Of a DNA stretch of 64,000 nucleotides, positions 3,525 to 58,924 are shown piece after piece. Both the position numbers and the translations under genes were made by a program. Position 1 is the first letter of the stretch; every line of letters starts with the position of its first letter. Origin of the DNA: Myxococcales bacterium (GTDB taxonomy: Bacteria; Myxococcota_A; UBA9042). The DNA lies in contig PBTG01000079.1 in assembly GCA_002726535.1 (NCBI GenBank), positions 9,615 to 73,614 on the forward strand, written 5' to 3'. The notes under the pieces were generated by a model. The model made no database searches. It worked only from the letters and a program-made list of their open reading frames with translations, and was not told the DNA's origin.

Positions 3525-3692
3525 TCCGGGTTCTGAAAGGAACAGGTAGACTAAAAACGTCCTTTACACAGTTCTTGTCTCCAAAACGGACGGTTTAAGT
3601 AACCCCTAGGGCGGCCTGAGAACCCGCTCTTTTTTTATCGTCTTTCGGAAGCCTTGGGCGACCGGGCAGATGCCCACCGCGAAAATCGCCTT

Positions 3693-6617: not shown

Positions 6618-6624
6618 GACATCA

Positions 6625-6644
6625 GGGGCTTCGGCCCCTTTTTT
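6625..6644 (+). terminator. Rho-independent terminator
   Basis: GGGGC-TTCG-GCCCC followed by TTTTTT, immediately after the stop of the fibre gene. Confidence 0.7.
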
Positions 6645-6699
6645 ATTGCTTATTCGGAAGCCTTTTGCGACCGGGCAGATGCCCACAGCTCACCCGCAA

Positions 6700-9921: not shown

Positions 9922-12900
9922 GTGTCTGAAGCAAAGAAACTCGACGCTCGGATGCTCCAGTGGCAGGACCAGTTAAGCGGCCTGACTGAGACAAACAGGG
10001 AGCAAGTAACACGCACATTGGCGCGTTCAATCAGCGGGACAGTGGCCGATCTGAAAGTTGCCTACAGCAAGTTCAACGCATCAGAAGGAACGAGCAACCG
10101 ATACACCATCGAAAGCCAGACGGTGAGATTCAGAGAGCTCACCAAAGCAGCCGAGGGGTTGATAGGCCCAGGAGCGCTAAAGAACATCAAGGCGATCTAT
10201 GAAAACGATCTAAACGACGCCTACTCGCTCGGGACGTCTGCAAGCAGAGATCTCACCAAGATCGTTGATGGCGCGGACACAAGCGCACAAGCAATGATCT
10301 CGAAGATGCCTGTAGCTGCGCAGGCAGCAGCAGGTCAGAACTTGATGCAGTTCTGGGACAAAGAAAAAGCAGCCTTAACCAACAAAGTCAGAGAAGCGAC
10401 CCTCTCCGCATTGCAGCGCGGCAAAGGATGGGCATCAGCTCAAAAAGACATCGCACAGGCCCTTCGCTCAAGTGGCCAGACAATCCTGAGGGGTAGAGAC
10501 GAGCTCAGCGTCACGGCCCGCGGCGGAATCGTGATGAACCTCGAGCAGCGGGCTGATCTGATCGCAAAGACGGAGATGGCTAACGCTTACATCCAGGGCC
10601 AGATATCGCAGTACAAACAAAACGGATACACACACGGCAGATGGTCGGCCACGGGTGAAAGAACTTGCCCGTTTTGTGTGAGTCGTGAGGGCAACATCTA
10701 TACCCTCGACGAGCTCGAAGGCGCGATCCCTGCGCATCCTCGCTGTCGTTGCACGATCGCCCCTGTCCTTGAGGAGAACGTCAAGAACGTCCAGAACGCA
10801 AGGGACCAGGGAGCGTCGGCGGCCCTGAACCTTGACGACGCTGGATGGACGGCAATACGTCAACAACGATTCAACGAATACCAGAAGTTCACCGGCAAGC
10901 CATTAGCTGATCCATCTAGGTGGATGAATGCGCCTACCAGTCGCCAAAAATTTCTAAACCCCAGGGCACAAGGAGACAAGCCCGCGTGGATGCCGTCGGG
11001 GAATGTTGTGCCAAACCTCGAGGGCGCACAGGCCGCCGCGATCAGAGCAAAGGATCTCGAGGCCGCTTCGAAAGAAGACCAGAAGGATCTGGATGCACAG
11101 AACAAAGAGATCGAAAAGCAGAAGCAAGCCGCGAAGCTGGTGAAAGAGCGCAAGGGCGAGGAGTTCACCTTTAAGCGCTTTAGCGACGCTACCGGCGACG
11201 AACCAGGTCCGGACACGAACTGGACTTCCGAGAGGCAGAAGCTGCACGACAAAATTGTTCAGAACTTCCTGAAGGACGGCAAGAAAAGCGCGACTCCAAC
11301 TTTCACCATGTCTGGCGGCGGCCCGGCTTCAGGGAAGGGCTTCATGCTGAAGAAGACCGGCCTAGATCAACCCGGCAAGGTAGTGATTGATGCCGATGAG
11401 ATCAAAAAGCTCATCCCTGAGTACGCCAAAGCCCAGAAGAAAGGCGGCGATGCACAGCAAGCTGCGGCGGGCGTTGTTCACGAGGAGTCGAGCTATCTCG
11501 CCAAGCGAATCATGGGCGAAGCTTCCAAGCGTGGTTTTGACATCGTTCTCGACGGCACTGGAGATAGCGGCATCAAGTCGCTAACCAAAAAGGTTCAGAA
11601 GATGCGCGATGAGGGGTATCGAGTTGAGGGGAAATATGTCAGCGCAGATACGGAGACCGCTGCACAGCGCAACTGGGATCGCTTCCTCAAAACTGGCCGG
11701 CTCCCACCCGAGTGGATGCTCCGCAATGTTCACGCCGACGTCTCGCGCACTTTGCCTAAGGCAATGCAGGACGGCCTGTTCGATGAGATCGAGCTTTATG
11801 ACACGAACAAGTCAGGGGAGCTGCGCAAGGTAGCCAGCCAGAAGGGCAAAAATAATCCAAAGATCCACGACAGCAAACTTTGGGACGACTTCAAGCGCAA
11901 GGGTGAGGCTGGACTTGTCACAAAAGAGCAGGGCGAGCGGCTAATCGAAGCCCGCAAACTGAAGGTGGACGTTAAAGCCAAGAGCAGCCACGGCAAGCAC
12001 AGCAATGCTCGCGCCGAAGGGGCCGAGCCTGGCCCCGATACCGTGTGGACCCTTGACCGCCAGAAGCTCCATAAGGAGATTGTCGACAAGTTCCTCGCCA
12101 ACGGTGCCAAGTCGGCTAACCCGACGTTCACCATGAGCGGAGGCGGCCCCGCTTCAGGTAAAGGCTTCATGCTGAAAGCCACTGGACTCGACAAGCCCGG
12201 AAAGGTCGTTATTGACGCAGACGAGATCAAAAAGCTGATTCCCGAGTATGCGGATGCCCAGAAGAAAGGTGGCAAAGCCCAACAGCAGGCAGCCGGATAT
12301 GTCCACGAAGAATCGAGCTACCTGGCCAAGCGGATCATGGCCGAAGCTGCGAAGCGCAGTTATGACGTCGTACTTGATGGCACAGGCGATAGCGGGATCA
12401 ATTCGCTATCCAAAAAAGTGCAAAAAATGCGTGACCAGGGCTATCGCGTTGAGGCGAAATACGTCAGTGCTGACACCGAGCTGGCTGCGCAAAGGAATTG
12501 GGATCGCTTCCTGAAAACAGGACGCCTACCGCCCGAGTGGATGCTTCGGAACGTTCATGCCGATGTGTCTCGGACACTTCCCGAGGCAATGAAGAAAGGC
12601 CTATTCGACGCGGTGGAGCTGTTTGACACCAATCTGAGCGGCCAACTGCGCAAGGTCGTCAGCCAGAAAGGCAAAAGCAAGCCCGAGATTCTCGACAAGC
12701 AGTTATGGAACGACTTCCAGAACAAGGGAAAAGCCAAGCAGGTCACGCCCGAGGAAGGCGAGGCAATGATCGCCAAGCGAAAGGCCGAGACCGAGGACCT
12801 CTCAAAGACAAGATCTGCAGGCACAGGCAAAACACCCGCAAAGACAAAGCCTTCCCCCACTAAGGCAAAGGAGAGCGACATGGTTGACCGGGCGACGCGA

Positions 12901-15126
12901 ATGAAGACCAGCGACGTCTTGGCTGATCCCTCCCGCTTCCAGTACAAGGTCAACTCGAACAGCAAGACAGGGGAGGTCGGCTCACTGTCCGGGGTCAAGA
13001 CTTGGAACGAGGATTTGGCAGGCGTTCTTTCGGTCTGGAAGGACCCGGCCAACGGGAAGACCTACGTCATCAACGGACACAACAGGCTTGCGCTAGCAAA
13101 GAAGCTCGGCGCCAAAGAGCTCCCCGTTGTTGTCATTAACGCCAAAGACGCCAAGGCGGCAAGGTCGATCGGCGCGAAACAAAACATCGCGAACGGTGAT
13201 GGAACCGCAATTGATGCGGCCAAGTTCATGCGCGACACCAACACAACAGCGCGAAGCCTGAAGGCCCAGGGCCTGAATTTGAAAGGATCTATCGCTTCAG
13301 ATGGCGCTGCCCTGGCGAACCTGCCCGACCATATTTTTAGGGCCGCTCTTGAGGGCCGGCTGTCGATCAGTCGAGCAGCCGCAATTGGTCGAAGTGGCCT
13401 GTCATCCGGGCAGATGAACAGCGCTTACAACGTGTTGAAGACAAAGCCTTCGATGTCTGTGGGCACTCTCGACGAGGTGCTTTCGAATGCCAGAGCTTCA
13501 GTAACACGCACCACAAGCGAAGAGACACTGTTCGGGACAACTACTACTCAGACTTCGACCCTGGTCGAGCGGGCCGATTTGGCCGCGAAGTTAAAGGCTG
13601 ATATGGGCAAAGAGGTGAGGATCCTCGACAAGGCTGCAGGCCGTGCCGATGTATTGAACAGCAAAGGAAACCGGATTGATGCGGGCAAGGCTCAGGTGAA
13701 GGCGGCTGAAGCGCAGGCACGCCTCGAGGTTTTTGAGCTGACAAAAAACAGTCAGGGTTCGAACCTGAACAAGACGCTGAACGAGGCCGCTTCTGCAATC
13801 CAGGATGCCGGTGGACGCTCGGCCAAGGCTCAGGCCACCAAGACCGGGAGAACAGCCGTCGATCAGGCCCTCGACGCAGAAATTGCAGCAATGAAGAAAA
13901 ACAGCAGCGGCTTACTTCGAAGCATCGCTGACCTCAAAGCCGTGGAGGCCGGCAAGGTCGCCCGCCCGCCCGAGCTCGCACTTGCTGCGGAAGCTCCAGA
14001 CTTGACTATCGACAAACGGCCCACGCGGTTGCTCGATCCGAAGACTGCGAAGGCAGGGTCAATCGGAGCTTTAAGGGTTAATCAAATCAAAGCCGACCCG
14101 AAGCGCTTCCAATACAAAGCCGCAACCGTCGCCGCCACTGGTGAGGTGGGTTCACTCGATGGAGTCCAGCGGTTCGACCCCAATCTCGCCGGAGTTATCA
14201 GCGTGTGGAAGGACCCAGCCAATGGGCAGACATACGTTATCAACGGCCACAACCGCCTAGCCGCGGCGAAGCGATTAGGGGCCGACGATATCGCTGTCAG
14301 ATATCTCAAAGCCGACAGGGCTGAGGATGCACGCTCTATCGGAGCACTGGCCAACATTGCCGAGGGCCACGGAACGGCGCTTGACGCCGCGAAGTTCATG
14401 AGAGCTAAGGGCTACTCCGGCACTGACATGAGGGCGCGGGGAATTGCCATGAAAAAAGATGTTGCCCGTGATGGCGCCGCTCTGGCCAACCTCCCCGAAG
14501 AAATCTTTGGGGATGTGGTGAACGAGAACATCTCAATAGAGAAAGCGTCTGCAATTGGATCCGGCGGACTGGACCGAAAGGGGATGGAGGCCGTCTACAG
14601 AAATCTGAGAACCCGGCCGGCGGCATCCGTGAAAACGGTGACCGAGCTTGTCGCGGCTGAAAAGATGTCGATGGAGATGGGGAGCACCGGCTCGCTATTT
14701 GCTGAATCCGCCGATGATCTGGCCTATCAGATGAACCGGGCCGACTTGACCGGCAAGGTTCGCGACGACTTGTTAAAAGAAAAATCACTCTTTAAGGCGG
14801 TAAGCACAAGCCGGGCGGCTCGTGATCTTGAGAAGGCAGGCTCGACTCTTGACCTGGCAGCCAACAGCAAGGCTGCGGCTCAGGCCGAGACGATCCTTTC
14901 CGTGTTTGATCAACTGAAAAACAGCAGCGGCCCTGTGGCCTCCGCCCTTAGCAGTGGCGCCCGAGATCTCGCTGTCGCCAAAACTGCTGCTGAGAAGAAT
15001 GTTGTCCGCCGCAGAGTGATGGATGACATCTCTAAGGCCGTCGATCAGGAACTTGGCGGAAACCTCGGCAGTGTGGAAGAACCACCTTCGGAGGCTCCCG
15101 GCCAGGAATCCCTGTTCGGGTTTTAA
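9922..15126 (+). CDS. Polyvalent virion protein: MuF/SPP1-gp7-like head-morphogenesis domain + 2x zeta-toxin-like P-loop kinase + 2x ParB-like nuclease domain
   Basis: GTG start. aa 240-280 CPFCVSREGNIYTLDELEGAIPAHPRCRCTIAP is the hallmark C-terminal motif of Mu F / SPP1 gp7 minor head proteins. aa ~425-660 and ~702-940 are two near-identical repeats (period 277 aa) with P-loop TFTMSGGGPASGKGF, VVIDADEIKKLIPEY and VLDGTGDSG (zeta-toxin-like). aa ~995-1190 and ~1385-1580 are two repeats with DP.RFQYK...TYVINGHNRLA(L/A)AK(K/R)LGA (ParB/Srx-like). Confidence 0.8.
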   Translation: MSEAKKLDARMLQWQDQLSGLTETNREQVTRTLARSISGTVADLKVAYSKFNASEGTSNRYTIESQTVRFRELTKAAEGLIGPGALKNIKAIYENDLNDAYSLGTSASRDLTKIVDGADTSAQAMISKMPVAAQAAAGQNLMQFWDKEKAALTNKVREATLSALQRGKGWASAQKDIAQALRSSGQTILRGRDELSVTARGGIVMNLEQRADLIAKTEMANAYIQGQISQYKQNGYTHGRWSATGERTCPFCVSREGNIYTLDELEGAIPAHPRCRCTIAPVLEENVKNVQNARDQGASAALNLDDAGWTAIRQQRFNEYQKFTGKPLADPSRWMNAPTSRQKFLNPRAQGDKPAWMPSGNVVPNLEGAQAAAIRAKDLEAASKEDQKDLDAQNKEIEKQKQAAKLVKERKGEEFTFKRFSDATGDEPGPDTNWTSERQKLHDKIVQNFLKDGKKSATPTFTMSGGGPASGKGFMLKKTGLDQPGKVVIDADEIKKLIPEYAKAQKKGGDAQQAAAGVVHEESSYLAKRIMGEASKRGFDIVLDGTGDSGIKSLTKKVQKMRDEGYRVEGKYVSADTETAAQRNWDRFLKTGRLPPEWMLRNVHADVSRTLPKAMQDGLFDEIELYDTNKSGELRKVASQKGKNNPKIHDSKLWDDFKRKGEAGLVTKEQGERLIEARKLKVDVKAKSSHGKHSNARAEGAEPGPDTVWTLDRQKLHKEIVDKFLANGAKSANPTFTMSGGGPASGKGFMLKATGLDKPGKVVIDADEIKKLIPEYADAQKKGGKAQQQAAGYVHEESSYLAKRIMAEAAKRSYDVVLDGTGDSGINSLSKKVQKMRDQGYRVEAKYVSADTELAAQRNWDRFLKTGRLPPEWMLRNVHADVSRTLPEAMKKGLFDAVELFDTNLSGQLRKVVSQKGKSKPEILDKQLWNDFQNKGKAKQVTPEEGEAMIAKRKAETEDLSKTRSAGTGKTPAKTKPSPTKAKESDMVDRATRMKTSDVLADPSRFQYKVNSNSKTGEVGSLSGVKTWNEDLAGVLSVWKDPANGKTYVINGHNRLALAKKLGAKELPVVVINAKDAKAARSIGAKQNIANGDGTAIDAAKFMRDTNTTARSLKAQGLNLKGSIASDGAALANLPDHIFRAALEGRLSISRAAAIGRSGLSSGQMNSAYNVLKTKPSMSVGTLDEVLSNARASVTRTTSEETLFGTTTTQTSTLVERADLAAKLKADMGKEVRILDKAAGRADVLNSKGNRIDAGKAQVKAAEAQARLEVFELTKNSQGSNLNKTLNEAASAIQDAGGRSAKAQATKTGRTAVDQALDAEIAAMKKNSSGLLRSIADLKAVEAGKVARPPELALAAEAPDLTIDKRPTRLLDPKTAKAGSIGALRVNQIKADPKRFQYKAATVAATGEVGSLDGVQRFDPNLAGVISVWKDPANGQTYVINGHNRLAAAKRLGADDIAVRYLKADRAEDARSIGALANIAEGHGTALDAAKFMRAKGYSGTDMRARGIAMKKDVARDGAALANLPEEIFGDVVNENISIEKASAIGSGGLDRKGMEAVYRNLRTRPAASVKTVTELVAAEKMSMEMGSTGSLFAESADDLAYQMNRADLTGKVRDDLLKEKSLFKAVSTSRAARDLEKAGSTLDLAANSKAAAQAETILSVFDQLKNSSGPVASALSSGARDLAVAKTAAEKNVVRRRVMDDISKAVDQELGGNLGSVEEPPSEAPGQESLFGF

Positions 15127-23184: not shown

Positions 23185-27417
<4,233 letters not shown>

Positions 27418-32134: not shown

Positions 32135-33658
32135 ATGGTGTGGGGGCAAAATGGAGGGTTAAGAGAATTCTTCGACAAGAACCAAAGGTTAGAAAGCGAC
32201 GCTCGCGATCGCCGCCTCAGCTACGAGAGGCTCACCGATTCGGGCAGCCTAGAAAGTACGGGATATGAGGGAAATTCTTTCGAGACCGAGACCGGCTCTT
32301 TCAACTGCCAGACGGCATCAGATTGCGGCGCTGATCACAGTTGTTCCGGCGGGCAATGCGTGCCCAACAATTCGACCAGCACTACGGCCGCAGGTGACGG
32401 CGCCTCTCCAGGCGGGTCGTCAAGCGGCGGCGGATCGCCAAGCGCGGGCTGCAGTGGTGACATCCCTGGAGACGACTGCATAGAAAAGGGGTGCGCCACT
32501 GGGCCTACATGTGGAGACGGAGGAGAGGAGCCCTTTGGCTGCTGCGGAACGCCTATCTACAGATGCCATGGCGCAGGCCAAACCGGAGAGCCGCAATGCG
32601 AGCCGTGCGAGTTCGAAGAAAAAGAGTGCAATGACTTCTGTGATTCGTGGTTTAAGTCACACGGTTCACTGGCCCCTAACTGCACAAGCGGAGCTACTGG
32701 CCGACCCCTGACGTGTGGCGATTGCAGTGAATGCTTTGCCAGCCTGTGCCGCGAGGCTGACGACGGCCCTTGCTGGTGCAAGCCAGGGAATACTGGCTGC
32801 CCTGACTGCGAAGAATGTCAAAGACCATCCGGCGACTGCAAGGCTGGTGTCGGGGTGTGCAATGACGAGTGCAACTGCTTCGTCACCTGCCCCTGCGGAA
32901 CTCAATACCAAGGCTTCCACACGCAGGAGCATTACGCCACCGGGCTTGCCTGCCCATCTGCGTGCCGCGCCGCCACTTATCAAAAATATTGCGTCGAGGG
33001 AAAAGATAAATCCTGCCCACCCCAGAAAGACTCCTGCAAGGCGGATCCCGGAAATAAGTGCGAGCTCGATTGTTACTGCACCTCTCAAAAGGTTTCATGC
33101 AACGGGACCCACACCTGCCCTGACGGCTACCGCTGCCAAGTCACGGGAACGCTGAACGCCTCACTTGGCGGTCAATGCGAGGACGGAACCGATCCCACAA
33201 ACCTTTGGGCGACAGGTGGCAAAACCATCTTCCTGAGGATCTGCAAGATGGCAGACGACCCCGACTGTCAGGAGTGTGATTGCAATTGTGAGAATGATTG
33301 CCCTGACTGCCACACCTGCGGGGCTGACGGAAGATGTGTTTATGACGAAGGCTGCGACACCCCTTGCGACAATCCCTGCAATGGCGCTTGTTGCGGGCCG
33401 GGCCAGAAATGCGTCCCCGCAGTTCTTTGGCAAGTCATCGACGCCTGCCACTTCCAGGGCGCGACTTTCGCGGCTCCTCAAGGTGTCACCCCTGCGCTAG
33501 TCCATACAACGGACGTCACAAAAGAAGATGCCGTCTGCGATCGCTGGCACACTCACTGCGCTGTCACGGTTCAAGGGGGTCAGGTCGCTCAGCACTTGGA
33601 CTGCCAGAAAGGTCTCAAGCGCATTGGGCCGGCTGGATACAACATCTGCAGCGACTGA
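32135..33658 (+). CDS. Cysteine-rich modular protein (507 aa, ~63 Cys)
   Basis: The N-terminal ~56 aa are Cys-free. The rest is packed with C-x(2-6)-C units (CQTASDCGADHSCSGGQCVP.., CPDCEECQRPSGDCKAGVGVCNDECNCFVTCPCG, CQECDCNCENDCPDCHTCGADGRCVYDEGCDTPCDNPCNGACCGPGQKCVP). GGAACC at 32086 upstream. Confidence 0.55.
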   Translation: MVWGQNGGLREFFDKNQRLESDARDRRLSYERLTDSGSLESTGYEGNSFETETGSFNCQTASDCGADHSCSGGQCVPNNSTSTTAAGDGASPGGSSSGGGSPSAGCSGDIPGDDCIEKGCATGPTCGDGGEEPFGCCGTPIYRCHGAGQTGEPQCEPCEFEEKECNDFCDSWFKSHGSLAPNCTSGATGRPLTCGDCSECFASLCREADDGPCWCKPGNTGCPDCEECQRPSGDCKAGVGVCNDECNCFVTCPCGTQYQGFHTQEHYATGLACPSACRAATYQKYCVEGKDKSCPPQKDSCKADPGNKCELDCYCTSQKVSCNGTHTCPDGYRCQVTGTLNASLGGQCEDGTDPTNLWATGGKTIFLRICKMADDPDCQECDCNCENDCPDCHTCGADGRCVYDEGCDTPCDNPCNGACCGPGQKCVPAVLWQVIDACHFQGATFAAPQGVTPALVHTTDVTKEDAVCDRWHTHCAVTVQGGQVAQHLDCQKGLKRIGPAGYNICSD

Positions 33659-33694: not shown

Positions 33695-36600
33695 GTGGCT
33701 GTTTTTCCTGATCGTATTGTCCAGAAAAACAGCACAGATCCTGCCGGTTCGGTAAGAACTGCTGTCGATCCCGTGATCGGTTCAGACCCAATCATCGGCG
33801 GTGAACTTGTAGTTCAAAGATCTATTGGCAGCGCTCAACTACTCACTCTTGATGCTAATAATACTCCAGTAGTTGTAGGCGTTTCGGCAAATGTTGGAGC
33901 GACCACTCCATCGATCAAGCTGAATTTTGAGGAAGATGGCACCGATACGCCGTATGAATATGTTGTCGGCGGATATCCTTTCGACCCCAGCGGCAAGTTT
34001 GGCAACTGTTATAAACACATTGCCGGCAGCACTTCCCCACGAATCAATCCCCTGAGAATCCAGGCCGAGAATGTGCCTGTCCTAGGGAGCGAAACTTGGA
34101 CATTTAACTTCTGGTTTAAAAGCGATTTTACTTTTGACTTTTACAGCCACTTCGACCCCGCCCCAAACAGCCTGCTAGTTGTTTCGGCGAGAGACTATGT
34201 CCATGGACCTGGAGCTTTCACTGTCACGATTGATGGTGGCACAACTGACACGGGCGGGATCGGCACGGACACAAGTCGCACGGCGGACCTGGCTAAGGGC
34301 GCGATCGTGTTTGGCCTGGGTGGCATGTACGGCGCGACAGAAAGCACCATCCCTCAGATCCCCTCCACAGGCGAGATCGTCACTTCTGCTGCGACTGGTG
34401 TCTGTGACAACAACTGGCACTACATCACCTTCATGCACGAGGGCAGCGGGGTTTACTCCTGTTTCATTGACGGCGAACTGAAAGAAAGAAACATCCTCGA
34501 CAGCCCCGTCAATTACGGCGACTCAGGAACTTCAGGGATCTTGATGCCCTCGGGTCTCGAGTTCGGTGGAGCTCTTCAGATCAATGACAACGACGTATTT
34601 CCTGGATCAGAGTTTTTCGGATTCAACGGCAGGCTTGATGGTGTCACGTTGTATGCCGGCAACGCCATTTTTCGGGGATTGCGTCAGTTCACAGTCCCCA
34701 CCTCTGCTCCAAACGACGACCCAGTACAGCAACCCCTAGACACGCTCAGGACACTCCTCGACACGGGCATCGACGCAATCCCAGGTAATGGCGAAACGCT
34801 TGTCTATAACGCCACGGAGGGCGCCTGGGAGAACTCACCAGCTCCAGCATTCAGCCTCACTGGCAACAACCTTGGAGATATTGGAGACGTCACCATCGCG
34901 GCAGTCGCCTCGCTGACTCAAGGCGAAACGATTACGTGGGATGTCGCGACCTCTAATTGGATCAACAGCCCGATCCTGATCGAAAACACCGACGTCGATA
35001 CGACCCTTACGGGCACGGGATATGTGATCCGCCACGACGGTTTGACCGGCTGGAAATCAGAGCGCCTCGATTACGCCGATCTGAGCAATGCCCCTGCAGC
35101 TCTGAGCGACCTGACACAAGACCTGGATTTAAGTCTCTACAACGTCGTTGACCTGGCCGATGTTGTTGTTACCTCGATTCAACAGGGCGACGTCCTCGCA
35201 TGGAACGACGCTAATAGTCAGTTCGAAAACATTGCTCAGCCACCGGCAAATATCAGCGGAAGCAATCTCGACGAACTTCTCAATGTCAAAACGTTCGCCG
35301 ACGTAAGTCAAAGCGTTTTAAACACTTACACCTGGTTGGCATGGAATGCGATCGACGCCAAGTGGGAGCCGAGAACTCTTGAATACACTGAGGTGTTTGA
35401 TGCACCTGCAGACCTAAGCGATTTCAACAACGACCTAACTCTAAATAGTTTCACCAATGACGCTGGTTATCTTTCAGCGGCAAACCTGTCGACGTTCTCT
35501 CTCAACTCTTTCGGCGATGTAACTATAACCAGCCCTGTCGAATCTCATGTCCTGGTTTACAGGTCCGGTCAGTGGCGCAATGAGGTTGGCCCACCGGCAA
35601 ACATCACGAGCAACTCAATCGGTGACCTTGCGGACGTCACTAAAACTCAGGCAGCCAATACCTTGCCGGCGGTGGTGACCATGGAGGACATGGGCCACCT
35701 GGTCTTTGACAGCCCTCTGCTCGCGTCAAATATCACTTATCAGGTGATGTACGACCACGACCGATTAGGTCTTGGCCTTTCGGCTATTCGTGACTCTGAC
35801 GACACGGGATCCGAGATCTTCGTTAGCCGTGGTGGTGGTGTTGACCTTCGCTCAGACGTCAACTTCTTCCGCCTACGCGGCAAGCCTGATGTAACAACCA
35901 ACAGACCCGAACTCCGTTTCGAGACTGGTGATTCTTTCGCTACCCCTGCGACAGGTCACTACATCTCACTCAAGATGCCCTCCACGGTCCTTGAAGATCA
36001 GACCTATTACTTGCCCCAAGAAGATGGCGACGTCGGCGACGTGCTCGCTACTAACGGAACAGGTGAGCTGTCTTGGATTGCTCGCGCCTCGAACAATGAT
36101 CTGGGCCAACTGAGCGACGTCGATCTGAGCACTCAGTTACCAGTCGACGGCAGCGCGTTAATTTACAACTCAGCGGCCTCGATGTGGGTTCCTGGAGCCA
36201 GCGTCACAGACCTGAGCACGTCAGTTTTGAATGACATCTCGGACGTCTCTTATGGAGGCACACCGGGGACAGGTCAGGCATTGCTATGGAACGGCAGCGC
36301 CTGGGTGCCGAATGACATTGCGGTCTCGCTCGACGACCTGGCTGATGTCACCTTCTCAAACGGGGCGTTCACTGCCACTGGACTGCAGGCGATTGTCCTC
36401 GAGGACACGGCAGGCACTGGGTTCATTGGGTTCACCTCACCCGCGAACTACAACGCGACCGTTCTTTATACGCTCCCCGTTGACGACGGGGCAACAGGTG
36501 AGGTGCTCACCACTAACGGATCAGGGGTCCTCTCCTGGATCGAGCCCGGAGTTGATGAAGCATCCCCTGCGATTGTTTGGGACGTAACAAACGTTGGGGT

Positions 36601-37441
36601 CATTGCTTACGGGTTTACCGGCTCAGGCTTTTCGACTACGACAAGCAACCCGGCCCTTTACGTGGTGCGCGGTCAAAAGTACACGTTTAATAAGACAATC
36701 TCTGGCCATCCGTTCGAATTGGTCGAGGCCGATGGTGTTACCCAGTACACCGCCGGAGCTGTAGAGAGTCAGCCCCTGGCCCTGGGCGAATTGAACTGGA
36801 CGGTGCCGATGGATGCACCCTCAACCCTTGGCTACCGATGCACGGCTCACCCGTTGATGAAGGGGATCATCTATGTCTTAAACGCTGGCGTCGACCTGGC
36901 CTCGTCGAACATCGAAGAGCTCGCCAATGTCTCGTCAACCGCCCCAACCGCGGGCCAGGCTCTTGTGTGGAACGGCACGGAGTGGGTCCCTGGGTCCGTC
37001 CTCAGCTCTGGCAGCGCTACCGGATCAGCGATCAGCCAGTCCGTAACTGAGACACAGGTATCCGATGCGAATGGTTTCTTGACCTTCATCGACCTGGGCA
37101 CCTCTGGAACGTTGATCGATATACAGGCAGGCGCTGAAGCGTGGGTGACTATCTATTCATCAGTAGCGACAAGGGCCGCGGACGCCGCAAGAAGCCTCGA
37201 GGAAGATCCTGCACAAGGGTCGGGAGTCCTTGCGGAGTTCGTTATCCCCGCATCGACAACAGTGCTGACAACGCCGAGCACCAACTACTTCAATTCGGAG
37301 GGACTCATCTCCGAGTCGATCTATGCAGTGGTTCGCAACCCCTCGACAGCAGCCGCGCTCAATAACGTCTCAGTGACTGTCAGGGCGTTCGCGATCAGCG
37401 GTTACACCGCAGTCTCTGGAGGCACTTTCGGCAGCGGTTGA
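33695..37441 (+). CDS. Tail fibre / host-specificity protein (1248 aa) with LamG-like domain, LSDL-type short repeats, an embedded cupredoxin-like domain and a C-terminal shared module
   Basis: GTG start. N-terminal motif DRIVQKNSTDPAGSVRTAVDPVIGSDP..GGELVV. aa ~130-260 WTFNFWFK..WHYITFMHEGSGVYSCFIDGELK fits a LamG/ConA-like jelly roll. Repeated ..LSDLTQDL / ..ADLSDFNNDL units. aa ~958-1062 carries cupredoxin ligand motifs. C-terminal ~110 aa is homologous to two modules in 37472..38635. Confidence 0.7.
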   Translation: MAVFPDRIVQKNSTDPAGSVRTAVDPVIGSDPIIGGELVVQRSIGSAQLLTLDANNTPVVVGVSANVGATTPSIKLNFEEDGTDTPYEYVVGGYPFDPSGKFGNCYKHIAGSTSPRINPLRIQAENVPVLGSETWTFNFWFKSDFTFDFYSHFDPAPNSLLVVSARDYVHGPGAFTVTIDGGTTDTGGIGTDTSRTADLAKGAIVFGLGGMYGATESTIPQIPSTGEIVTSAATGVCDNNWHYITFMHEGSGVYSCFIDGELKERNILDSPVNYGDSGTSGILMPSGLEFGGALQINDNDVFPGSEFFGFNGRLDGVTLYAGNAIFRGLRQFTVPTSAPNDDPVQQPLDTLRTLLDTGIDAIPGNGETLVYNATEGAWENSPAPAFSLTGNNLGDIGDVTIAAVASLTQGETITWDVATSNWINSPILIENTDVDTTLTGTGYVIRHDGLTGWKSERLDYADLSNAPAALSDLTQDLDLSLYNVVDLADVVVTSIQQGDVLAWNDANSQFENIAQPPANISGSNLDELLNVKTFADVSQSVLNTYTWLAWNAIDAKWEPRTLEYTEVFDAPADLSDFNNDLTLNSFTNDAGYLSAANLSTFSLNSFGDVTITSPVESHVLVYRSGQWRNEVGPPANITSNSIGDLADVTKTQAANTLPAVVTMEDMGHLVFDSPLLASNITYQVMYDHDRLGLGLSAIRDSDDTGSEIFVSRGGGVDLRSDVNFFRLRGKPDVTTNRPELRFETGDSFATPATGHYISLKMPSTVLEDQTYYLPQEDGDVGDVLATNGTGELSWIARASNNDLGQLSDVDLSTQLPVDGSALIYNSAASMWVPGASVTDLSTSVLNDISDVSYGGTPGTGQALLWNGSAWVPNDIAVSLDDLADVTFSNGAFTATGLQAIVLEDTAGTGFIGFTSPANYNATVLYTLPVDDGATGEVLTTNGSGVLSWIEPGVDEASPAIVWDVTNVGVIAYGFTGSGFSTTTSNPALYVVRGQKYTFNKTISGHPFELVEADGVTQYTAGAVESQPLALGELNWTVPMDAPSTLGYRCTAHPLMKGIIYVLNAGVDLASSNIEELANVSSTAPTAGQALVWNGTEWVPGSVLSSGSATGSAISQSVTETQVSDANGFLTFIDLGTSGTLIDIQAGAEAWVTIYSSVATRAADAARSLEEDPAQGSGVLAEFVIPASTTVLTTPSTNYFNSEGLISESIYAVVRNPSTAAALNNVSVTVRAFAISGYTAVSGGTFGSG

Positions 37442-37453
37442 CCGGAACCCTAG
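37442..37453 (+). promoter_or_regulatory. Representative copy of recurrent cGGAACCcTAG motif (candidate late promoter -35-like element)
   Basis: CCGGAACCCTAG lies immediately after the stop of 33695..37441 and 20 nt before ATG 37472. Related copies at 1224, 9894, 18200, 21872, 23154, 32086, 38638, 39489, 40342 and 44939. Confidence 0.35.
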
Positions 37454-37471
37454 CCCGAGATTGACGGGCTT

Positions 37472-38635
37472 ATGGCGGACTTCATCGCACGGATCAAACC
37501 AAAAAAGAGCTCCGTATCAGGTGAAGTCCCCACGGCCTCAGACCTCGAAGTCTCCGAGATTTCAGTTAACACCGCCGACGGCAAGCTGTTCGTCAAGCAC
37601 ACCGACGGCAGCATCAAAGAGATCAGTGGATCGAGTGGCGCCAGTGACGGATCAGTCAGAACAAGTGATCCACAAATCACCACAGCAGCGCTCGCTCAGT
37701 ACGCATCAGAAGACGCCACCTTTGGTCAGACCGGCAGGGCTGGGCAGTTCCTGAAAATCGAGGCAAGCTGCGCCTCATGGGTCGTCTTCTATTCGAGCAG
37801 GGCTGCGCGCACTGCTGACGCAGCAAGAGCATCAGACGAGAACCCAGCCCAGGGCGTCGGCGTACTGATGGAGGTTTTCACCGATCAGGCTGAGACCGTT
37901 CTGATCACGCCGTCTGTTCTCTACTTCAACGACGACGTCAACGAAGGCGCCGAGGTCTACGCAAAAGTCGTCAACCAAGACGCGACAACTCAAGCGGTCA
38001 CCGTCACGGCCACCGTGGTCCCTATCGAAGGACGCTCCCTATACGAAGCAGAGGGGACAGCTCGGATCAAGGGCCTAAGTGTCGAGTCGGCATCGCTGGC
38101 CACGAACGCATCAGAGTTTTTAACGCTTAAGCAGACCGCACGATCTGGCCAGTTCACAAAGATCTCGACCTCAGCAGCGGCCCGCGTAATTTTTTACAGC
38201 ACGACAGCAGCGAGAACAGCCGACTCGTCAAGGCAGCAAGGTTCGACTCCCTTGGCTAGCTCCGGCGTGTTGATGGAGGTGGTCACCGCAGGCGCTGAGA
38301 CGTTAGAGATCACTCCAGCAATTCTCTATCAAAACTCTGAGCCAGGCGCAGCCGGCGAGCTCTACGTGAGCGTGACGAACCTGGAGACAATTGCAACCGC
38401 AATCACTGTCACCGTTGACGTCGTACCCATCGAGGGACGCGGTGCATATCTGAGTGAGCTGAATGAACTACTCGATGTCGACACTACGGGCGTAGCTAAT
38501 GGTGACGCGATCGTCTACGACGCAGCAGCATCGAAGTGGGTTCCTGATCAGCTCATCAGCCTGAGCAGCTTGAAAACTGAGGTGGCGGCTGCTTCTGATT
38601 TCGCCGACTTTCAGTCGAGGATCGCGGCGCTCTGA
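37472..38635 (+). CDS. Tail fibre protein with two tandem ~105-aa shared modules
   Basis: N-terminal anchor motif IARIKPKKSSVSGEVPTASDLEVSEISVNTADGKLFVKHTDGS. Two internal repeats (..GQF.KI..S.A..V.FYS..AARTAD..R......GVLMEV.T..AET..ITP..LY.N.....E.Y..V.N.......TVT..VVPIEGR). C-terminal GDAIVYDAAASKWVP. Confidence 0.6.
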   Translation: MADFIARIKPKKSSVSGEVPTASDLEVSEISVNTADGKLFVKHTDGSIKEISGSSGASDGSVRTSDPQITTAALAQYASEDATFGQTGRAGQFLKIEASCASWVVFYSSRAARTADAARASDENPAQGVGVLMEVFTDQAETVLITPSVLYFNDDVNEGAEVYAKVVNQDATTQAVTVTATVVPIEGRSLYEAEGTARIKGLSVESASLATNASEFLTLKQTARSGQFTKISTSAAARVIFYSTTAARTADSSRQQGSTPLASSGVLMEVVTAGAETLEITPAILYQNSEPGAAGELYVSVTNLETIATAITVTVDVVPIEGRGAYLSELNELLDVDTTGVANGDAIVYDAAASKWVPDQLISLSSLKTEVAAASDFADFQSRIAAL

Positions 38636-38669
38636 TCGGAACCATAGGCCGACAGATCAAGCCGGCTTA

Positions 38670-39038
38670 ATGATCAACTCCGTCGAGGACCTGAGAAGCG
38701 CTGGCGTGTTGCCTACTGGTCCTGTTTCTGCTTGGCCGAAACAGCGCAATGTGGCCGGGCCAGGGATGAGGGGCGCCAAGGAACACAAGGCCGATCCCAA
38801 GATCAAGGCAACGGTGGCAGGCCTGGCGAGAGGTCTGGGTAAGACCGCGCTGCAGGGAATCCTCAACGGCAAGGTCAGCCGTGAGGTCAGAGAGGAGCGG
38901 TATGACATTTGTAAGGCTTGCTCGGCATTTCGCAAGCAAGACAAGCGCTGTAGTGAGTGCGGTTGCTTTATGGAGGCCAAGACGTTTATTGCTGGCGACC
39001 CCGACATGCTCTGTCCCCTCAAAAAATGGAGCCGCTGA
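38670..39038 (+). CDS. Zinc-ribbon-like CxxC..CxxC protein
   Basis: CKACSAFRKQDKRCSECGC....LCP cysteine pairs. Preceded by GGAACCATAGG at 38638. Confidence 0.4.
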   Translation: MINSVEDLRSAGVLPTGPVSAWPKQRNVAGPGMRGAKEHKADPKIKATVAGLARGLGKTALQGILNGKVSREVREERYDICKACSAFRKQDKRCSECGCFMEAKTFIAGDPDMLCPLKKWSR

Positions 39039-39041
39039 TCG

Positions 39042-39464
39042 ATGGCTATCAACCCCGCGCCAATGGATCAATGTCTGGTCAAGGCTCGCTGCCTGACTGG
39101 ACCTAATGAGGGGCTGGCATACGACCTCAAGCAGCCCTGCCCGACCGGTCAGCAGTTCGTGCCGGAAGTGTGCGACTGCTTCCCTATAGATACGCCTTGC
39201 CCTGCCGGCATTGGCGGGACCTTGACGTCACGCCTCAGCAGTCGGCTAGGGAACGCAACGGTAACGACTTTCTACCCCACAATTCAAGGCGGAGTGGCTG
39301 GCGGCGGCTCTCGCGTCATCGATGATCAGATACAGGTATTTGATGGGACGGCCTTTGTCGCGGCAGGCGTTACCCCTTACAGCGTTGGCGACGAATACGG
39401 CGGCCAGATCTTGACCAGTGTCGTTCACTCGTTCGCTTTGGCTAGTACGTGTGATCCGACTTGA
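39042..39464 (+). CDS. Hypothetical Cys-containing protein
   Basis: ORF track. CLTGP..CPTGQQFVPEVCDCFPIDTPCPAG. Confidence 0.35.
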   Translation: MAINPAPMDQCLVKARCLTGPNEGLAYDLKQPCPTGQQFVPEVCDCFPIDTPCPAGIGGTLTSRLSSRLGNATVTTFYPTIQGGVAGGGSRVIDDQIQVFDGTAFVAAGVTPYSVGDEYGGQILTSVVHSFALASTCDPT

Positions 39465-39518
39465 TCAGGGTTCGCACTCTAACTGGCCGGAACCATAGGG
39501 GGCAACTTTCTGCCGGGG

Positions 39519-40277
39519 GTGATCCCCGTCTGCACCATGCCCGAAGAGAATCTCAATCTCGACGTCAACGCTGGCGTTGAAACCGCCGAAACAGTCGACG
39601 CATCCCCCTCCACTGAACAAGACAGCTATTCAAAGGAGGAGGTCTCGAAACTGCTAAAGGCTTTACATACCGAGCGCGACGCTCGCAAAGCACAAGAGAA
39701 AGCCCTCAAGGAATCAGCCACCAAGCTGCAATCCCTGGAAGGCATCGATAAGGCCACTTACGACAGGCTTCAGGAAGAATCTGCACGCCGTGCGGAGGCT
39801 GAGGCCACTTTCGAAGCTCGTGAGCTCGATCGCCAAAAGGCCTTCGAGTCGATGCGTCAAGAGGCGGCCGTCCGTGAGCGCAAGCTCGAAGGGCAGATCA
39901 GCCACATGAATCGCCACCGGGCGTTCGAGGGACTCTTCTCCGCTGCAGGCGGTAAGGGCGGAAGATTCCTAGATACAGCGTTCGACGCTGTCGGCAAAAG
40001 CCTACGCCTAGAAGACAACGGCTCATTTACGGTCATCGACCCCAACGGCGACCCCTTGCTCGACGATGAGTCAGGCAAGCGCATCGACCCAAAAGAGTGG
40101 GTTAGCCAGTGGAAAAGCGATGACTTTCTCGGCTTCTGCTTTGAGCCCGAACAGGGCTACGGCACCGGGGCAACCAATCACCCCTCACAGCGTCGCGACA
40201 CAGGGACTATGGGTGATTTCAAAGGTCTAAGCACTAGCGAAATCTTCGCCCGTTCGTTCGGCAACAAGAAGGGCTAA
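39519..40277 (+). CDS. Putative capsid scaffolding protein
   Basis: Acidic N-terminus followed by a long charged coiled-coil-like stretch (KAQEKALKESATKLQSLEG..EESARRAEAEATFEARELDRQKAFESMRQEAAVRERKLEGQ). Lies immediately upstream of the candidate capsid gene. GGAACCATAGG at 39489. Confidence 0.4.
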   Translation: MIPVCTMPEENLNLDVNAGVETAETVDASPSTEQDSYSKEEVSKLLKALHTERDARKAQEKALKESATKLQSLEGIDKATYDRLQEESARRAEAEATFEARELDRQKAFESMRQEAAVRERKLEGQISHMNRHRAFEGLFSAAGGKGGRFLDTAFDAVGKSLRLEDNGSFTVIDPNGDPLLDDESGKRIDPKEWVSQWKSDDFLGFCFEPEQGYGTGATNHPSQRRDTGTMGDFKGLSTSEIFARSFGNKKG

Positions 40278-40493
40278 GCCCAAAAAACGAGTGAGTTCGG
40301 GAGTTGACGTGGGCCACTTGCGCCAACTTCGGCACTCTCTCGGAACCCTAATCACGAGATGGAAGATGCCCTGGTTCTGATTCGGTGCGACGCCGATTCG
40401 GTGGCCTGGGCAGAACGGACCCCTTGAGGTGTGACGCCTCTGTTCCGAACTTCCCAGATCACCAACTCAATGTCACTCTGACAACTCAGAACA

Positions 40494-41417
40494 ATGTCTT
40501 TAACCCTGCTACAGCAAGGCCAGTTCGCCACAACAGGCGAGCAGCTTGCAATCATCTCCGAGCTCGCCGCTGGCGACCTCCTTTCAGTTCTTCCCTTCCG
40601 TTCAATCGAAGGGAACAGCATCCGCTTCCGGCGCGAAGAGGCTCTGCCTGACGTCGGCTTTCGCCACGTCAACGGAACTCTCACCGAGAGCTACGGCGAG
40701 ATCTCGATGCAAAGCGAGGCTCTCCACCTGTATGGCGGCGACCTGCGCGTTGACAAGGCCATCCTGACCCTCGAAGGTCCTGAGGCCCGTGCATGGAACA
40801 TCCAGGCCCGCGTGAGAGCAATGCGCCACAACTTCGAGAAAGTCTTTATCAAAGGATCCGAAGCTGCCTCTAACGGCCTCGAGTTCGATGGACTGCAGGC
40901 CCGTATCGCTGCAACCTCCAGCCAGTACATCGCCAATCAGTCCGGCAACTCCGGCGCCCTCAGCTTCGCAGCTTTGGACGAGGCCCTCGACGCAGTCGAC
41001 GCCACTGGCGGCCAAAAATACTTGGTCATGTCGAAGCAGATGCGTCGTGCCCTGACCGCCGGCTCCCGCGATTCTGGCGTCAACGGTGGCATACATATCA
41101 GTACCGACGAGCTTGGGAGACAGCGCACTATGTACGCTGATACCCCGGTGTTGATCGTGGACCGCGACGAGAAGAACGTTGACATCCTGGGCGCTACTGA
41201 AGCAAACAGCACTTCTTCCGTCTACATCGCGTCATTCGGCGACACCGCTCTGACCGGCATCCAGAACGGCGGCATCGAGGTCCGCGACCTCGGAGAAGCC
41301 ACCGACCGCCCTCAGATGGTCACAAGAATGGAGTGGTATTGCGGACTAGCTCTGCTTCGTGGAAATGCTGTCGCACGCCTCGCCAAGGTTGACCCAACTC
41401 TGGCCGCTGTCGCCTGA
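40494..41417 (+). CDS. Putative major capsid protein
   Basis: 307 aa. Sits after a scaffold-like gene and before a ~107-aa gene. Sequence (GLQARIAATSSQYI..ALSFAALDEALDAVDATGG..KYLVMSKQMRRAL) is reminiscent of lambda-E-like capsid proteins. Assignment is by position and composition only. Confidence 0.4.
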   Translation: MSLTLLQQGQFATTGEQLAIISELAAGDLLSVLPFRSIEGNSIRFRREEALPDVGFRHVNGTLTESYGEISMQSEALHLYGGDLRVDKAILTLEGPEARAWNIQARVRAMRHNFEKVFIKGSEAASNGLEFDGLQARIAATSSQYIANQSGNSGALSFAALDEALDAVDATGGQKYLVMSKQMRRALTAGSRDSGVNGGIHISTDELGRQRTMYADTPVLIVDRDEKNVDILGATEANSTSSVYIASFGDTALTGIQNGGIEVRDLGEATDRPQMVTRMEWYCGLALLRGNAVARLAKVDPTLAAVA

Positions 41418-58027: not shown

Positions 58028-58924
58028 ATGACTAAAACTAAGCTTCATGTCCCAAGTTCGGTCGATCAATTTTTCAACTCGATGGGCCGCTATAAAGTCC
58101 TGGAGCCTGCTCTGGTTATCGAGCTTGCCCGGAAGGTCCAGGCTTGGAGGCAGCACCCGGACGGCCCTGACGATTGTCCGCTAGTCGTTAAACGTCTGGG
58201 CTTGGCAGCGCGAAATAAGTTGGTCGCCCACAACCTTCGTTTAGTCGTAAGGATTTGGCGGGACTGTTACGCCATGCGCGTGACAGCAAAAGATCCCGGT
58301 CTCGCTGATATGTTTCAGCTCTCTGCACAGCAGTTGGTTCGGGCCGCTGAGTTATTCGATCCACTTAAGGGGCGCACTTTTTCAACTTATGCCTCAACGT
58401 GGATCCATAAAGGAATGAAAGAATTTATAGGTGGGCAGCGCCGAACGGTTCGAATCCCGTTGAGTCATTATTTCATTATCAAGGCGGCTCTACTTATCCA
58501 GAGCAATCGCTCTGCGGCCGGCTTGCCTAAATTGTCCATGACAGAGCTAGTGGATGAGATGTCGCAAACTCGGCAGGTTATGCCGACGCCAGAGCAGCTC
58601 GGCGATTGGATTCGGTGCCACGATCTCACTGATCTCAGGTCGTTTTCCGAACGCATCGGGGATGAGAAAACTGAGCTAGGTGATTTGATTGCCAGCCGTC
58701 AGACCGAGGGCGATGACGCCAACGACGCGGTCCAGCGTGCTCGTGATGCCATGGCCGATCTCACGACCATTGAGCGTCGCGTTGTCGAGAAGATGCACCT
58801 GCGGGGCCGTGGTTCGATCGGGTATCGAAGCTGCGCCAAAGTGCTAAAGATCTCTGAGCTTCAGGTCCGCGCTGCAGAGGCCAGGGCTTTCGATCAGATC
58901 AAACTCTCAATCTCGGTAGACTGA
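58028..58924 (+). CDS. Sigma-70 family RNA polymerase sigma factor
   Basis: Region-2-like VAHNLRLVVRIWRD..AELFDPLKGRTFSTYASTWIHKGMKEFI (cf. DLIQEG..GL..A..KFD...G..FSTYA.WWIR) and region-4-like IERRVVEKMHLRGRGSIGYRSCAKVLKISELQVRAAEARAF. Confidence 0.8.
   Translation: MTKTKLHVPSSVDQFFNSMGRYKVLEPALVIELARKVQAWRQHPDGPDDCPLVVKRLGLAARNKLVAHNLRLVVRIWRDCYAMRVTAKDPGLADMFQLSAQQLVRAAELFDPLKGRTFSTYASTWIHKGMKEFIGGQRRTVRIPLSHYFIIKAALLIQSNRSAAGLPKLSMTELVDEMSQTRQVMPTPEQLGDWIRCHDLTDLRSFSERIGDEKTELGDLIASRQTEGDDANDAVQRARDAMADLTTIERRVVEKMHLRGRGSIGYRSCAKVLKISELQVRAAEARAFDQIKLSISVD

Follow-up and report, generated by a model that had tools for sequence, protein, structure and literature searches.

A cupredoxin module with a candidate copper site in the tail fibres and baseplates of marine cyanophages

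A phage tail fibre encoded in a 64,000-nucleotide stretch of contig PBTG01000079.1 (assembly GCA_002726535.1, the whole stretch being referred to here as the window) contains a cupredoxin module with the four ligand residues of a blue copper site. The carrier is a tail-fibre-like protein of 1248 amino acids (aa), encoded by a GTG-start open reading frame (ORF) at 33695..37441 on the + strand, and the module occupies its residues 954–1067 (36554..36895, +). Cupredoxins are the textbook electron carriers of respiration and photosynthesis, and tail fibres and baseplates of viruses are a place where no redox-type metal site would be expected. Our findings reveal that the module belongs to a large unnamed family that moves among the virion proteins of marine cyanophages, a group that ranks with the ocean's most abundant viruses. 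It has thousands of relatives in metagenomes, yet it has been missed by Pfam, PROSITE and phage annotations. The fold and the cofactor site are thus known ones, whereas the family, the context and the presumed use are new.

Identity of the module as a cupredoxin

The first-pass annotation of the window had placed a type 1 copper domain within the fibre at about residues 958–1062. The ORF listing bore out the 1248-aa fibre at 33695..37441, and translation of 36566-36880 returned the very peptide that had been quoted (PAIVWDV...GHPFEL...GYRCTAHPLMKGIIYVL). The domain is present, with boundaries slightly wider than proposed, at residues 954–1067 based on homology and the structure model. The Cys-x2-His-x2-Met spacing was read correctly, whereas the motif suggested for the first His, G..Y.F.N.....H.F, was one residue too long; the sequence is GQKYTFNKTISGHPF, which follows G..Y.FN.....H.F.

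All four canonical ligands were found at the expected spacing. His1005 (36707..36709, +), the first or N-terminal copper ligand, lies in the motif G-H-P-F and aligned with pseudoazurin His40 and plastocyanin His37. Cys1049 (36839..36841, +), the thiolate ligand, closes the penultimate strand and aligned with the Cys of pseudoazurin, amicyanin and plastocyanin; it is one of four Cys in the whole 1248-aa fibre. His1052 (36848..36850, +), the second His ligand, and Met1055 (36857..36859, +), the axial ligand, each aligned with the known ligand and complete a C-x2-H-x2-M loop with the spacing of amicyanin CTPHPFM.

Sequence searches and fold searches agreed with the resemblance to plastocyanin and amicyanin that had been noticed by eye. 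When the single domain was compared with all Protein Data Bank (PDB) sequences using phmmer, nearly all matches were cupredoxins. The best was pseudoazurin 2ux6 (E = 6.9e-5), which carries the amicyanin loop, and the next were further pseudoazurins and amicyanins. These alignments placed the GH and C..H..M of the module over known copper ligands. Two profiles were also used, A1 (18 close homologs) and A2 (51 diverse family copies, all with an intact site). Profile A1 gave marginal PDB matches only (E >= 0.018). Profile A2 matched 9cck (E = 9.7e-6), 6hbe (E = 1.4e-5) and plastocyanin 2plt (E = 4.2e-4); 42 of its 44 PDB matches were cupredoxins, with H, C, H and M over the plastocyanin ligands.

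An AlphaFold2 model built from the 18-homolog alignment had a predicted local distance difference test score (pLDDT) of 92.4, a predicted template modelling score of 0.86 and nine strands, with a pLDDT of about 97 over the ligand loop. The model is a Greek-key beta-sandwich within the 7–9 strands of the cupredoxin fold and superposes on known cupredoxins. Foldseek comparison with the PDB, a check proposed in the first-pass annotation, returned cupredoxins for all 50 best matches (best E = 1.7e-5), including NirK, rusticyanin, plastocyanin, amicyanin, pseudoazurin and laccases; no phage protein was found among these PDB fold matches. In model numbering, the Cys is residue 96 and ends the penultimate strand (91–96), His99 and Met102 lie in the loop before strand 103–109, and the first His (His52) follows strand 4 (42–47). 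This ligand placement is the canonical type 1 topology. The topology and the loop pLDDT would be in keeping with four ligand side chains that converge at one point. A chance motif was ruled out by phmmer, profile A2 and the unanimous fold searches. Residues 954–1067 are a true member of the cupredoxin superfamily.

Domain databases did not identify the module. Pfam gave no meaningful match for the whole protein or for the domain, and 15 of the 51 family members matched Copper-bind weakly (best E = 6.2e-5). A form of the PROSITE blue-copper pattern PS00196 matched 0 of 239 copies because no Pro or Gly precedes the second His; the same form did match plastocyanin and amicyanin sequences. Since the module fails both Copper-bind and this form of the PROSITE pattern, annotation pipelines leave these regions blank. 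A word-indexed homolog search with the domain alone gave no match, which is a sensitivity artefact, since homologs exist. As a side observation, 19 of the 51 A2 copies weakly matched the Pfam family PF25489, 'At5g54830-like domain' (best E = 1.9e-5), more than matched Copper-bind. At5g54830 is a plant cytochrome b561/DOMON protein, and PF25489 may itself be an unrecognised cupredoxin-like domain.

Ligand conservation and distribution among phages

Ligand conservation was assessed in 239 domain copies taken from the proteins in hand and unselected for the motif (median pairwise identity 42%). Profile A2 was built from copies with an intact site, so its ligand invariance is circular and was unused as evidence. 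Among 18 module-bearing fibres homologous to that of the window, the four ligands were invariant down to 34% identity, and the loop residues between the ligands varied (PL, SQ, PV, AG, AS, PQ, SS, TG and SA). His, Cys, His and Met were all kept in 208 of the 239 copies. Column conservation, computed over 236 unselected copies, was 94.9% for His1005, 93.1% for Cys1049, 92.2% for His1052 and 94.4% for Met1055, against a column median of 47%. The ligand columns ranked 8th, 9th, 13th and 16th of 102, and only structural Gly, Pro, Tyr and Arg columns ranked above them.

The ligands were also lost together. The second His was missing in all 16 copies without the Cys and kept in 212 of the 214 copies with it; the Fisher p for this coupling is tiny and is not a true probability, because the copies are related. 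The C-x2-H-x2-M loop was present in 186 of 205 scorable copies, and a Tyr stood two residues before the Cys in all 205. Phe replaced Met in three copies, a substitution that occurs in natural type 1 sites. The first His was followed by Pro-Phe in 185 copies, with Pro1006 92% conserved. The Asn that directly follows the first His in classical blue copper proteins is absent from the module, as it is from rusticyanin. Judged from these alignments, the pattern is that of a four-residue cooperative site under purifying selection.

An exhaustive HMMER scan of 1.84 billion representative sequences detected 2,740 proteins at E <= 1e-3, of which 1,017 also passed E <= 1e-10. Multiple copies are common among them, and a single protein had as many as 9 matched stretches. 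As the first-pass annotation had advised looking for the same insertion in other phage fibres, the 114-aa module was compared by tblastn with 50,697 isolate phage genomes, giving 321 records. All 321 are marine Synechococcus or Prochlorococcus phages. The claim of a cupredoxin in a fibre was upheld, but the idea of a single odd insertion was not, since the module recurs throughout these records. The full-length fibre of the window had 31 homologs, all metagenomic and all without annotation, and 18 of the 31 contained the module in frame. A chimeric or misassembled host plastocyanin was rejected, the module being in frame in these 18 fibres and present in 321 isolate genomes.

The placement of the module varies, being N-terminal, internal, C-terminal or in tandem arrays, in tail fibres and in proteins called 'gp9'. 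In T4-like cyanophages it forms the C-terminus of the protein annotated gp9, which reads ...NHPFRIQ...LYYQCTVHSLMNGTINILN up to the stop in P-SSM7 and ...YYQCTIHAAMNGTIIVVS up to the stop in S-RIM8. In the podovirus P-SCSP2 it stands at the N-terminus of a protein of 437 aa and retains every ligand. Fibres of cyanosipho- and cyanopodoviruses carry the module. Structure matches in BFVD with a template modelling score of about 0.9 included a 'long tail fiber proximal subunit', a 'T4-like proximal tail fiber' (P-SSM2) and a 'virion structural protein', together with fibres bearing S8 or S74 peptidase domains. The module is a hallmark of the marine cyanophage adsorption apparatus.

Cellular genomes were scanned with profile A1, using one genome for each of 185,579 bacterial and archaeal species. 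Only 7 loci were found, all in marine metagenome-assembled genomes (MAGs). Locus L004 ('Proteobacteria bacterium UBA4457') has the gene order of the window (fibres, scaffold, major head protein), and the module is present in both of two neighbouring fibre genes. The contig is plainly that of a phage and looks like another mis-binned one. At locus L007, the evidence is confined to two adjacent proteins that match the fibre family PHROG 677. A cellular protein family was rejected, because of the two MAG loci examined, L004 is clearly phage and L007 has fibre-like matches only. The module family is essentially viral and, among cultured phages, cyanophage-specific. Five independent marine MAG contigs assigned to Flavobacteriales, Cryomorphaceae or Schleiferiaceae (L005-L009) contained distant module copies of 29-32% identity. 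These may indicate that the module extends to phages of non-cyanobacterial marine hosts, or binning errors may again be responsible.

Known relatives and possible roles of the site

Among known cupredoxins, the closest relative is amicyanin by site anatomy, the tethered domains of nitrite reductases by score, and plastocyanin by biological neighbourhood. Amicyanin shares with the module the fold, the His, Cys, His, Met order, the Tyr at position -2 from the Cys and the minimal C-x2-H-x2-M loop (CTPHPFM in amicyanin, CTAHPLM in the module). It differs in that it works as a separate protein, a periplasmic electron carrier of about 105 aa (Paracoccus and Methylobacterium), whereas the module is a domain within a 1248-aa virion protein. 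The first His is followed by Asn in amicyanin and by Pro-Phe in the module, and the sequence similarity between them is marginal (E 0.03-0.7). Plastocyanin has the same fold and ligand set, and its ligands aligned with those of the module in the profile match to 2plt given above. Its loop, however, is longer (C-x2-H-x4-M), and it is a stand-alone lumenal carrier in the host that is recognised by Pfam and PROSITE. The plastocyanin gene petE is an auxiliary metabolic gene carried by cyanophages; our analysis gave no evidence that the module derives from it. In copper nitrite reductases (9cck, 6hbe and 6tfd/2dv6), a tethered cupredoxin feeds electrons to a catalytic copper, whereas the fibre is without a catalytic partner.

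Metal ions built into tail fibres are known from phage T4, with Fe in the gp37 tip and Zn in gp12, on the three-fold axis and bound by His from three chains. Iron on the tails of marine phages is also the basis of the 'Ferrojan Horse' idea. A related paper (PMC11705849) concerns putative iron-binding fibre domains. The T4 sites are inter-chain and axial, whereas the site of the module lies within one autonomous domain and has a blue-copper ligand set. The 'gp9' of P-SSM7 matched T4 gp9/gp10 only over its first 40-60 residues (residues 3-61 in the T4 gp9 match), a segment that we infer to be a baseplate anchor. As T4 homology is limited to this N-terminal segment, the cupredoxin is without a T4 counterpart. 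The fibre protein of the window gave no match to T4 gp9, including its middle and C-terminal parts. The immunoglobulin-like (Ig-like) and fibronectin type III accessory domains of phages resemble the module as small beta-sandwiches of variable position and copy number on virion proteins. They have another fold, whereas the module has conserved metal ligands, and the likeness is functional only.

We consider it likely that the module is a movable accessory domain of the fibre whose selected copper site would lock it into a knob with a structural or adhesive role. The site is expected to bind a metal, most probably copper because of its His2-Cys-Met ligand set. The module is present in fibre or baseplate proteins of hundreds of marine cyanophages, whose virions are therefore likely to contain copper sites. 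The metal would tie the last inter-strand loop, with Cys, His and Met, to the loop of the first His, and this locking would make a small exposed accessory domain rigid and long-lived. The locked domain could then act as a spacer or as a weak adhesion knob, as Ig-like domains do on other phages. If the fibre is a trimer, as other tail fibres are, the shaft would bear three projecting knobs.

Several points weigh against this account. The window domain scored 12.8 bits against Pfam Copper-bind (PF00127), a check suggested in the first-pass annotation, which is under the cut-off of 21.2. Virion proteins fold in the copper-poor cytoplasm, and cupredoxins are normally loaded in the periplasm or thylakoid lumen, so zinc or no metal is conceivable. 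With the Asn after the first His replaced by a nearly invariant Pro, the second sphere differs from that of classical sites. About 13% of the copies are without a complete site, and the fold can therefore persist after the site is lost. Finally, a purely structural role only partly explains the strong conservation of the weak axial Met.

This conservation lends some weight to a redox-active copper centre, or one that switches with redox state or pH. Such a site would take part in infection by gating adsorption or triggering, exchanging electrons with the cyanobacterial surface or sensing its redox state or pH. The full ligand set survives in 87% of copies; it includes the axial Met, whose effect is to tune potential and not affinity. 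In length the loop equals that of amicyanin, and reduced amicyanin protonates and releases its exposed His at an unusually high pKa. A reduced short-loop site in the fibre could likewise lose its exposed His by protonation near neutral pH, giving a conformational switch. The isolate phages with the module all infect oxygenic phototrophs, and some cyanophages adsorb in a light-dependent manner. We nevertheless regard a role of this kind as unlikely, since no partner, substrate or electron path is evident and type 1 sites are constructed so that their structure changes as little as possible. That the module varies in position and copy number, with up to 9 stretches in a protein, also fits an accessory domain better than a precisely placed sensor. 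The broader proposal, that most marine cyanophage virions carry working blue-copper redox centres on tail fibres and baseplates, active in infection for example as a redox-, pH- or light-linked switch of adsorption or triggering on photosynthetic hosts, is similarly unlikely.

The loss of the site in some copies would suit a metal-free beta-sandwich scaffold, such as CyoA, SufI and the factor VIII A domains, in which the ligand residues are kept for packing or by ancestry. We consider this very unlikely. The ligand columns are far more conserved than the median (92-95% against 47%) at 42% pairwise identity, and the residues between them vary freely. The joint loss of Cys and second His (16 of 16) is expected of a cooperative site, unlike independent packing residues, and a lone conserved Cys on an exposed loop is otherwise hard to explain. 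A functional site that holds another metal, for example Zn(II), owing to cytoplasmic assembly, with a structural role only, is also highly improbable in our judgement. Type 1 sites do take Zn, Co and Ni readily, cupredoxins expressed in the cytoplasm are often Zn-loaded, and Fe or Zn is used structurally in the T4 fibres gp37 and gp12. The His2-Cys-Met set with its conserved axial Met is, however, a copper signature, unlike typical structural zinc sites, and virions released by lysis enter seawater, where type 1 sites could acquire Cu.

Returning to the favoured copper-locked knob, copper binding, if true, raises the question of how phage particles obtain a scarce and toxic metal. It also raises the questions of whether the supply of metal influences how stable cyanophages are or which hosts they infect, and of whether the site is chemically active during infection. 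Working redox centres, if true, would be a first example of a virus particle that uses an electron-transfer cofactor extracellularly. Should the site be a structural lock only, the module would still define a large new domain family, with which receptor-binding proteins of cyanophages are better annotated. A literature search found no work that connects cupredoxins or blue copper with the tails or baseplates of phages, with virions or with the gp9 of cyanophages within its coverage, from which many subscription journals are absent. In the cryo-electron microscopy paper on P-SCSP1u, only the T7-like fibre anchor is resolved, and the module is neither resolved nor mentioned.

The fibre gene and its genome context

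The carrier protein is a tail fibre by homology and by position. It matched PHROG 677 'baseplate wedge tail fiber connector' (E = 4.6e-45), PHROG 9729 'tail fiber protein' and PHROG 9627, and its gene lies in the tail-tip block after the tape measure gene and ORFs of 827 and 237 aa. The PHROG 677 match spans fibre residues 785-1063, stopping at the end of the module, which forms the C-terminal part of that family. At least 8 short G-x-x-L-x-[WYT]-[ND]...W shaft repeats, common to cyanophage gp9, occur along the fibre. One of the repeats, G-x-x-L-x-T-N...W (residues 935-950; 36497..36544, +), stands just before the module, and another, L-x-N-V...GQALVWNGTEWVP (residues 1073-1099; 36911..36991, +), just after it, so the module is inserted between two shaft repeats. 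The C-terminal domain (36992..37438, +) is unrelated to cupredoxins and matched PHROG 9627 over residues 1067-1248 (E = 2.4e-58); from its position alone, it is probably the distal tip. No additional copy of the module and no petE gene were found within the window.

A phage genome makes up the window, and its genes include those for a tape measure protein (23185..27417), the scaffold and the major head protein (39519..41417), endolysin, primase, helicase and RecT. Its guanine plus cytosine content is 55%, and no transfer RNA was found within it. The capsid protein shares 55-59% identity with its counterparts in the cyanosiphoviruses PSS2, S-CRES1-3 and S-CBS2, and the next best match is 39%. 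At NCBI, an identical fibre protein is listed as hypothetical and assigned to a 'Myxococcales bacterium' MAG. Because the capsid matches cyanosiphoviruses and the window is full of phage genes, the contig is evidently a mis-binned cyanosiphovirus-like phage and the Myxococcales label a binning error. The fibre genes precede the scaffold and major head genes (33695..41417), an unusual order common to S-CRES3 and the MAG contig L004.

Several other genes were noted. Directly upstream of the fibre, in the tail-tip block, 32135..33658 (+) encodes a 507-aa protein with 63 Cys (12.4%) that is unmatched in both Pfam and PHROG. This may be a tail protein rich in disulfides or one that binds metal, and its position beside a putative copper-binding fibre is intriguing and unexplained. 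After the fibre, 37472..38635 (+) encodes a 387-aa protein with two PHROG 9627 copies. Its N-terminus has weak matches to tail-fibre PHROGs, and the protein is probably another fibre, shorter but with the tip domain in common. Two slightly overlapping genes of 987 and 1017 aa (3654..9570, +) lie upstream of the head-morphogenesis gene, a long way from the main tail block. They share the same N-terminal tail-fibre matches (PHROG 1197, 2631 and 7032) and are probably paralogous fibres. A head protein of 1734 aa (9922..15126, +) combines minor-head PHROG 16619 (E = 0) with a portal-like C-terminal PHROG 21 match (E = 3.5e-107) and has a weak ParB-like nuclease stretch near residues 1045-1100. Lastly, 58028..58924 (+) encodes a 298-aa sigma-like factor that matched the RNA polymerase sigma factor PHROG 351 (E = 4.4e-28).

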